DNA from: Escherichia coli
GTDB lineage: Bacteria; Pseudomonadota; Gammaproteobacteria; Enterobacterales; Enterobacteriaceae
NCBI RefSeq assembly: GCF_003334335.1
Contig: NZ_QOWQ01000155.1
Strand: one strand, 5' to 3'
Length of the DNA stretch: 700 bases
Below, piece after piece: positions 494 to 644 of the stretch. The notes beneath the pieces are model-generated. The model saw only the letters and a list, made by a program, of their open reading frames with translations, was not told the DNA's origin and ran no database searches. How positions within the stretch are numbered: position 1 is the first letter of the stretch; every line of letters begins with the position of its first letter. Made by a program: the position numbers and the translations under genes.

Positions 494-524
494 GAGTATA
501 TGACGATTTATCTTCTGCAAACAT

Positions 525-533
525 TGTTATAAT
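525..533 (+). promoter_or_regulatory. Candidate sigma70 extended -10 element (TGtTATAAT); no convincing -35
   Basis: TG at 525-526, one spacer base, then a consensus TATAAT at 528-533. Upstream 494-524 is AT-rich. Hexamers at 16-18 bp spacing match TTGACA poorly, so activity would depend on the extended -10. Predicted transcription start is about 540-541. Sequence-only prediction. Confidence 0.35.
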
Positions 534-539
534 TCGCAG

Positions 540-631
540 GTTCATCCGCCTCATGTGATGAACTGCGTTTGAGGAAACGTAAAGTTACACTGTCCTGAAG
601 CCCGTGGCGTCACTGCTGCGGGCTTTTTTTT
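540..631 (+). ncRNA. Candidate small RNA (~90 nt) between the predicted promoter and the intrinsic terminator
   Basis: Promoter-like element at 525-533. 5' hairpin 539-564 (GGTTCATC / GATGAACT, 7 bp plus a G·U, 10-nt loop). Second small hairpin 566-579 (CGTTT-GAGG-AAACG). Unpaired stretch 580-597. Terminator hairpin 598-625 followed by U8. No plausible ORF with a ribosome-binding site in the interval. Hypothetical; no expression evidence. Confidence 0.25.
598..631 (+). terminator. Rho-independent terminator downstream of lom and immediately upstream of the stf ribosome-binding site
   Basis: AAGCCCG (598-604) pairs with CGGGCTT (619-625). The loop 605-618 can pair further (G607-C616, C608-G615 plus G·U wobbles) around a TCAC tetraloop. 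A run of 8 T follows at 624-631. The minus strand has no T-tract after the hairpin, so it is unidirectional for + strand transcripts. Confidence 0.6.
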
Positions 632-633
632 AT

Positions 634-640
634 GGGAGAA
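634..640 (+). promoter_or_regulatory. Ribosome-binding site (GGAG core at 635-638) for the stf-like gene
   Basis: GGGAGAA lies 6 nt upstream of the ATG at 645. Confidence 0.5.
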
Positions 641-644
641 ATCT

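Follow-up and report, generated by a model that had tools for sequence, protein, structure and literature searches.

Organisation of the lom–stf junction

We analysed a 700-bp stretch of Escherichia coli DNA, hereafter the window, which on its plus strand contains the 3′ part of lom, a spacer and the 5′ end of an stf-like gene (Table 1). Its 700 bases are 99.9% identical to positions 564–1263 of AF151091, the record of prophage P-EibA from E. coli ECOR-9. That record annotates lom at 457–1056 and an orf-401-like gene from 1208, and the gap between these two genes carries no feature. The assignment of lom to the Ail/Lom family follows the annotation of genes homologous to it.

Table 1. Features of the window, numbered from its first base
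Feature	Positions	Strand	Basis or remark
lom 3′ part (Ail/Lom outer-membrane beta-barrel)	1..493	+	ORF 17..493; TGA 491–493; 99.9% identical to P-EibA lom
lom–stf spacer, long allele, 151 bp	494..644	+	from lom TGA (491–493) to stf-like ATG (645)
Spacer 5′ end	494..503	+	entirely different between lineages
Conserved A+T-rich block upstream of the −10, without recognisable −35	505..524	+	alignments of variants
Extended −10 promoter element TGTTATAAT, perfect TGnTATAAT	525..533	+	read directly
Hairpin 1: 10-bp stem, one bulged G (G540), 10-nt loop	536..566	+	folds
Nearly invariant stretch, largely single-stranded, GTTTGAGGAAACGTAAAGTTACACTGTCCT	567..596	+	variant alignments, folds
Rho-independent terminator: 13-bp stem 597–626, G+C core 600–623, loop TCAC, 8 T at 624–631	597..631	+
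Shine–Dalgarno of stf, GGGAGA	634..639	+	5 nt before ATG; read directly
stf 5′ end (side tail fibre, lambda orf-401 homologue; prophage tail fibre N-terminal domain)	645..700	+

The extended −10 element in the spacer is a perfect match, for which we calculated a chance expectation of about 0.005 in 151 bp when both strands are counted. A promoter scan requiring a −35 element found nothing in the window; as the spacer has no −35, no promoter could be detected there by a search for hexamer pairs. Transcription from the extended −10 element is predicted to start near G540, and the predicted transcript folds with z-scores of −3.9, −4.2 and −5.3 in variants A, B and C, respectively. Variants A and B fold with segment 582–596 unpaired. 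The nearly invariant stretch contains AGGA and UCCU, and segment 582–596, with its anti-Shine–Dalgarno-like UCCU, is a candidate seed for base-pairing. The Rho-independent terminator is strong, with a tail of 7–8 U, and is the sole terminator-like site in the window; it would be common to the lom mRNA and to a candidate RNA arising within the spacer.

Neither strand of the spacer has a conserved ORF. A small protein was rejected as the product, since the only spacer ORF with an ATG (499–531, 10 codons) lacks this start codon in lineage B, the commonest form of this spacer. An antisense unit was likewise rejected, as the minus strand of the spacer has neither a promoter nor a terminator.

On the other side of lom, the J–lom gap of locus L004 contains another terminator-like hairpin, GGGCGCCAGAAATGGCGCC, with a T run after it (3352–3376; hairpin 3352–3371). 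Because this hairpin precedes lom and the spacer terminator stem (597–626) follows it, lom is bracketed by terminators on both sides. A consensus scan of the same locus found no sigma-70 promoter for lom. In ST131 strain 2017_APHA (NZ_CP051615 18780–21965; locus L002, 805–3990), lom is split by ISEc12, an IS21-family element with istA and istB, and the long spacer 3′ of the split gene is intact.

Two spacer alleles and their alignment

The first-pass annotation had measured this spacer at 151 bp and had estimated that it exceeds the lambda spacer by roughly 85–90 bp. Both figures are borne out, and the lambda coordinates that it gave proved exact: in J02459, lom occupies 18965–19585 and orf-401 starts at 19650, which leaves a spacer of 64 bp (19586–19649) and an excess of 87 bp in the window. 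At 64 versus 151 bp, the two spacers are not of similar length.

Spacer length was surveyed in 80 IMG/VR loci anchored on the Lom protein, so that the spacer played no part in their selection. The spacer was 64 or 67 bp long in 45 loci and 150–152 bp long in 36, with no intermediate lengths; one further locus has a 711-bp IS200 insertion. Of 5,426 complete E. coli genomes, 4,305 carry the short spacer (64/67 bp), at 12,107 places in all, and 1,640 (about 30%) carry the long spacer (149–152 bp, at 80–100% identity), at 1,959 places; the short allele is thus six times commoner. No annotated feature underlies the long spacer at any of the matches listed in these genomes. The seeming 348-bp spacer of locus L189 does not represent a third allele, since it results from a truncated match to lom.

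The long allele is found, among others, in O157:H7 strain Rafaela_II, Sakai Sp9 (NC_002695.2 1798916–1799066, between ECs_1807 and ECs_1808, upstream of nleA), prophage PP6 of the enteropathogenic strain (EPEC) E2348/69 (NC_011601.1 1470637–1470787), an ST131 prophage and Eib-type prophages. Only five records of deposited phage genomes contain it, and the short allele is found in lambda and in those lambda-like Stx phages whose coordinates were checked. An exact-pattern scan of IMG/VR returned at least 120 stretches with the long-allele pattern. Counted over all analysed loci that have the pattern, 155 copies have recognisable flanks on both sides, and each of these copies has lom on one side and stf on the other. 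When 100,044 species representatives were scanned once for the exact pattern, the only match was a 4,349-bp contig (L090, JAIJJM010000250.1) of a 'Collinsella sp.' metagenome-assembled genome; this contig carries an E. coli lom–stf module and is most likely a mis-binned or contaminating fragment of an E. coli prophage.

The long spacer also differs between prophages in its genetic neighbourhood. In lineage A, to which the window belongs, a gene for a YadA-like immunoglobulin-binding Eib protein lies a few kilobases downstream of the tail-fibre genes (L004 6958–8151; L212 3918–4195). In O157, lineage B is linked to nleA and nleG. At locus L062 (IMGVR_UViG_2563366803_000005, 3101–3962), where the spacer is of the long allele, the 711-bp insertion directly follows the T run that ends the lom terminator. 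This insertion codes for a 152-amino-acid IS200/IS605 transposase (NF033573, 148 bits), has hairpins at both ends and leaves the stf ribosome-binding site in place on its 3′ side.

To place the extra bases, we aligned the spacer of the window with that of lambda. In a MAFFT alignment, lambda lacks window positions 494–507 (14 nt), 549–617 (69 nt) and 640–643 (4 nt), which together account for the difference (14 + 69 + 4 = 87). The alignment pairs lambda TTAGCCAGGTAACACAGTGTTATGAC with window TTATCTTCTGCAAACATTGTTATAAT and resumes in the 3′ arm of the terminator after the 69-nt gap, which can be slid to about 536–604 with its matches unchanged. In this better-supported alignment, the main gap falls between the extended −10 element and the lom terminator, and it removes part or all of hairpin 1 together with the invariant stretch. 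Shuffling tests gave p = 0.005–0.03 for the promoter-side alignment; an alternative in which the 5′ part of the lambda spacer is aligned to the pre-terminator block was no better than chance (p = 0.2–0.4) and was rejected.

The lambda junction (J02459 19586–19649) occupies the same position and shares much of the layout of the long spacer. Its relative of the −10 region reads TGTTATGAC, compared with TGTTATAAT in the window and TGTTATGAT in lineage B, so that its −10-like hexamer is spoiled to TATGAC, ending in C. The two junctions also resemble each other in the pre-terminator block (GTAACACAGTGTTATGA versus GTAAATATTGTTATGA), in the outer terminator sequence AGCCCG...GCGGGCTTTTTT, with the terminator ending in GCGGGCTTTTTT, and in the arrangement from the terminator to the ribosome-binding site. 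By contrast, lambda has a shorter terminator stem and lacks the invariant stretch along with the 3′ arm of hairpin 1 or, depending on gap placement, the whole hairpin. The first-pass annotation had likened the extra length to a promoter plus a structured segment at 525–600. That size is right and the main block rightly placed, as most of the extra bases lie in or adjoin this segment under either gap placement. On placement, the comparison with lambda thus agrees reasonably well with the first-pass annotation: lambda keeps a relative of the −10 region and a terminator, and the RNA body between them is absent. The interpretation in that annotation is upheld in part, the exception being its claim of insertion (see below).

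A direct comparison of the two alleles came from loci L050 (long) and L058 (short), which are about 100% identical in lom and stf outside one patch of ~290 bp. This patch comprises the last ~110 nt of lom (20–28 matches per block of 30), the spacer and the first ~30 nt of stf. Because it enters both genes, the pair is best described as two old haplotypes swapped by homologous recombination, with no clean indel. Within the short haplotype, lom of lambda diverges from its relatives until about 90 nt before the stop codon, and from that point near-identity continues through the spacer into stf.

The junctions of the long spacer show neither target-site duplications nor terminal repeats. The extra block had no paralogue in some 1.5 Mb of prophage sequence, and a search of 50,697 phage records for distant relatives of it found none. 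The view in the first-pass annotation that the unit was inserted or acquired rather than ancestral was therefore not upheld, given that there are no marks of a mobile element and no copies elsewhere, and that the exchanged patch reaches both genes. We consider it very unlikely that a discrete promoter-plus-structure module was inserted into an ancestral lambda-like spacer. Such an event would account for the coincidence of the main lambda gap with the RNA body and for the short allele being the majority form, and the site does tolerate insertions, as the IS200 element just after the terminator in L062 illustrates. However, besides the absence of repeats or duplications at the junctions, the 87-bp difference is split over at least three gaps, the divergence extends to the adjoining 110 nt of lom and 30 nt of stf, and the module was not found elsewhere, all 155 copies with two recognisable flanks lying between lom and stf. 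Moreover, promoter-like and terminator parts are present in both alleles, so that an inserted module must have come without them. The main block has TGA at both of its ends, and the short allele, GTTATGA-C-AGCCCG, is what a microhomology deletion would be expected to leave, bar one base; a match of three bases is a weak sign of deletion. The −10-like relic that directly abuts the terminator in the short allele would be no harder to explain by a deletion in a long ancestor than by an insertion.

Variation between lineages of the long spacer

We distinguished four lineages, A–D, among the 16 different sequences of the long spacer. Lineage A is that of the window, with TATAAT, and its variant is carried by ECOR-9 and CP55_Sichuan; lineage B, found in O157, EPEC and ST131 and by far the commonest, has TGTTATGAT; lineage C has TGGTATAAT as its −10 element; and lineage D is one singleton in which the −10 is destroyed. 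The −10 element is thus kept in three of the four lineages, with substitutions solely at the degenerate −13 and −9 positions. In the singleton L141 (IMGVR_UViG_2671180747_000005), whose spacer is 149 nt long, a deletion relative to lineage B has destroyed the −10 at spacer positions 33–41 (TTGCAATGTAC), and the hairpin, the invariant stretch and the terminator are all intact. L141 is a natural promoter-down allele and could be used as a control.

Across 10 distinct variants of lineages A–D, positions 567–596 contain a single variable position. Most of the sequence variation between variants falls in the loop of hairpin 1. In its stem, 98% of cells are paired in the pair counts, and changes are one-sided and only to G–U or A–U; in the terminator, all pairs are retained in all 10 variants. 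The pair counts over the long-spacer variants revealed no compensatory double changes in the stems, and covariation therefore gives no support either way.

The module at 505–630 is 87–100% identical between long-allele lineages, and the lom and stf flanks have diverged to 30–80%. In block comparisons across lineages A, B, C and D, region 537–626 keeps 25–30 of 30 bases per block, and region 567–626 keeps 28–30 of 30 among A, B and C. The same comparison gave 7–21 of 30 in the 3′ half of lom and 7–29 of 30 in stf, and both ends of the spacer (494–503 and 631–644) have diverged between lineages. Among 33 Lom-anchored long loci, diversity was 0.015 and 0.000 at spacer positions 61–120, compared with 0.02–0.13 in the genes. 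The short-allele spacer is equally poor in diversity and is the least diverse part of its own region, so low diversity is not specific to the RNA body. Loci L091–L210 were retrieved by exact match to 576–603, and invariance there is by construction; our statements on conservation are accordingly based on the Lom-anchored set and on the cross-lineage comparison. The island pattern seen across lineages is, on these alignments, the stronger argument for conservation than low diversity.

One possible explanation for these patterns is that the long allele is neutral and has no function of its own. The junction block would then have spread in recent times and would serve as a linker for homologous recombination between the lom and tail-fibre modules. 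The difference between long and short alleles within a recombination patch that reaches both genes is consistent with this, as are the equally low diversity of the short spacer, the switch from divergence to near-identity in lom of lambda and its relatives, and the lack of covariation. We nevertheless regard a neutral linker as unlikely. The conserved module is an island, and because the spacer ends and both genes have diverged among A, B and C, hitch-hiking with a flank does not give this pattern; in addition, the stems and the critical −10 positions are spared by the variation that is present. If the spacer is untranscribed, the locus would represent two conserved lom–stf junction alleles exchanged by recombination, with lambda carrying the short and commoner one.

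A candidate small RNA compared with known RNAs

By its sequence features, the spacer of the window is the minority allele of a two-allele junction and a conserved non-coding unit shaped like a small RNA (sRNA) gene. It combines a Rho-independent terminator and U tail with a conserved, accessible putative seed region, and it is non-coding. We think it quite possible, if short of probable, that the long spacer is a gene for a small non-coding RNA of ~91 nt that shares the lom terminator, whether as its own transcript, as a processed lom 3′ UTR or both. The long allele would then supply an extra RNA body of ~70 nt, consisting of the 5′ hairpin and the ~30-nt invariant stretch, between the extended −10 element and the lom terminator. 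The ~91-nt RNA would extend from a start near G540, used by sigma-70 RNA polymerase, to the T run at 624–631, or might alternatively be cut from the lom 3′ UTR. Such an RNA may base-pair in trans through its invariant stretch, with 582–596 as the candidate seed, as 3′-UTR-type enterobacterial sRNAs do, and possibly with the help of a chaperone. In terms of phage morons, a promoter-like element and a terminator with no ORF between them would make the unit an RNA-only moron, contained in the 3′ end of another moron, that of lom.

DapZ and MicL are enterobacterial sRNAs of the 3′-UTR type, which have their own promoter and share a terminator with the upstream gene. By analogy, the spacer unit would resemble them in having a promoter at or inside the end of a protein gene, a short body, a 5′ hairpin and a conserved single-stranded stretch, and in a U-tailed Rho-independent terminator that also ends the upstream mRNA. 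It differs from them in being prophage-borne and a predicted unit.

An alternative is that the spacer does no more than serve lom, as the 3′ UTR and terminator of this moron. Hairpin 1 and the terminator would then stabilise the lom mRNA and shield stf from lysogenic transcription, no RNA would act in trans, and the −10 match would be fortuitous or a relic. This explanation is plausible but doubtful. It fits the bracketing of lom by terminator-like hairpins (L004 3352–3371 and 597–626), and the short allele, six times commoner, does the same job by its terminator alone. It also fits the position of hairpin 1: the predicted start at 540 falls inside this hairpin, so that its full 10-bp stem, which begins upstream of the start, forms only in a lom-derived transcript, and a longer lom transcript therefore fits better than an sRNA with its own start. 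However, a terminator and a stabilising hairpin have no need of a nearly invariant 30-nt single-stranded stretch, and it is the critical positions of the −10 that are kept in three of four lineages while neighbouring bases change.

Published expression data bear on both explanations. Strain E2348/69 carries variant B, the commonest. The E2348C_1438/1439 spacer appears in none of the rows listed in the published EPEC Hfq RIL-seq tables, either by name or by coordinates, an absence of sRNA signal that is consistent with a plain 3′ UTR; lom itself is nearly silent in the tables of that study (baseMean about 2). The Sakai Hfq-CRAC list contains no site at the spacer. That screen retained a site only if it was antisense to a coding region or at a distance of more than 100 bp from one. 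Within a spacer of 151 bp, no position on the sense strand passes this filter, which illustrates how published catalogues miss units close to genes. Given its absence from the RIL-seq and CRAC data, an abundant sRNA bound by Hfq is less likely under the conditions of those studies; the RNA may still be expressed in other conditions or bound by another chaperone. A full-text literature search with the spacer sequence and with the Sakai and EDL933 locus tags returned nothing on the spacer.

The order of elements at the junction (promoter, leader, terminator, gene) resembles that of a cis-acting leader or attenuator, which here would control stf–tfa. Such a role is extremely unlikely: the folds contain no alternative anti-terminator pairing and the terminator dominates all of them, and the short allele has the same arrangement from the terminator to the ribosome-binding site without any leader. 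Moreover, stf is a late gene served by Q-antiterminated transcription.

We also looked for targets of the candidate RNA near the locus. Seed duplexes with 15 kb of Sp9 and 8 kb of L004 reached −28 to −31 kcal/mol, and shuffled seeds reached −25 to −33 kcal/mol, so that no target in this neighbouring prophage DNA stood out from the shuffled controls. A fuller version of the sRNA interpretation, namely a previously unrecognised ~91-nt sRNA that is present in ~30% of E. coli, is expressed in lysogens and has host or phage targets, with the lambda-type junction as its deletion derivative, seems to us somewhat unlikely. In pathogenic E. coli, prophage sRNAs such as AgvB, AsxR, HnrS and Esr41 reshape both core regulation and virulence, and the long spacer unit is a candidate addition to the prophage intergenic sRNAs, a well-known kind. 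If transcribed, it would be a widespread and so far unannotated sRNA in the tail region of prophages with nleA or Eib genes, and the natural pair of long and short alleles would offer a test of how such RNA genes are gained or lost.

The spacer unit matched none of the known RNAs with which we compared it. No covariance model in Rfam 15, including those of AgvB/AsxR, Esr41 and STnc100, gave a match above threshold; at E ≤ 10 the best matches scored 10–16 bits, against gathering thresholds of 39–60, and these sub-threshold matches are due to the generic terminator. AgvB, AsxR and EcOnc03 were ruled out because their sequences are unrelated, and HnrS (EcOnc10–12) because it lies at different loci. 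PasB (NC_011601 1466261–1466343, minus strand) was ruled out as an RNA of unrelated sequence in the I–J gap, between the tail assembly gene I and J, 4.3 kb upstream, and EcOnc22, EcOnc23 and EcOnc24 of Sakai were ruled out as RNAs of the I–J gap on the opposite strand, EcOnc22 being in Sp15.

PasB and EcOnc22–24 are Hfq-dependent sRNAs validated by northern blotting, and by analogy these I–J gap RNAs may serve as a precedent within the same tail operon for an sRNA in the spacer. They resemble the spacer unit in lying in an intergenic gap of a lambdoid tail operon, in their size of 83–85 nt and, in E2348/69, in residing in the same prophage, PP6. They differ from it in occupying the I–J gap rather than the lom–stf gap, in strand and in sequence, and the spacer unit, unlike them, is a predicted one. 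A PasB-like sequence lies upstream in 38 of the 59 long-allele loci with enough flank, mostly at 4.3–4.8 kb, and two RNA-like units may therefore share the tail region of a prophage. Pairing between the candidate RNA and PasB was not significant (p = 0.1). The I–J gap RNAs are antisense to the tail genes (PasB at L005 1762–1844, minus strand; EcOnc22 at L006 2215–2275), and locus L003 has a comparable 240-bp I–J gap at 228–467.

The nearest known RNA by position is 24B_1, a 20-nt small RNA of the lambdoid Stx phage Phi24B that is encoded immediately downstream of lom, between lom and vb_24B_43 (PMC4426718). It differs from the candidate in lying on the strand opposite to lom, and Phi24B is a short-tailed phage with a 428-bp region downstream of lom and without stf. 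On account of its strand, and as the 428-bp region has no significant similarity to the window, 24B_1 was ruled out. The same paper reports a failure to find any Rho-independent terminator on the downstream side of lom in Phi24B (PMC4426718). In the Phi24B sequence (L213 876–900; HM208303, about 45575–45600), we observed CCCGCTGTGATGGCGGG followed by TTTTTT, ~22 nt after the lom stop codon, which by eye resembles a terminator.
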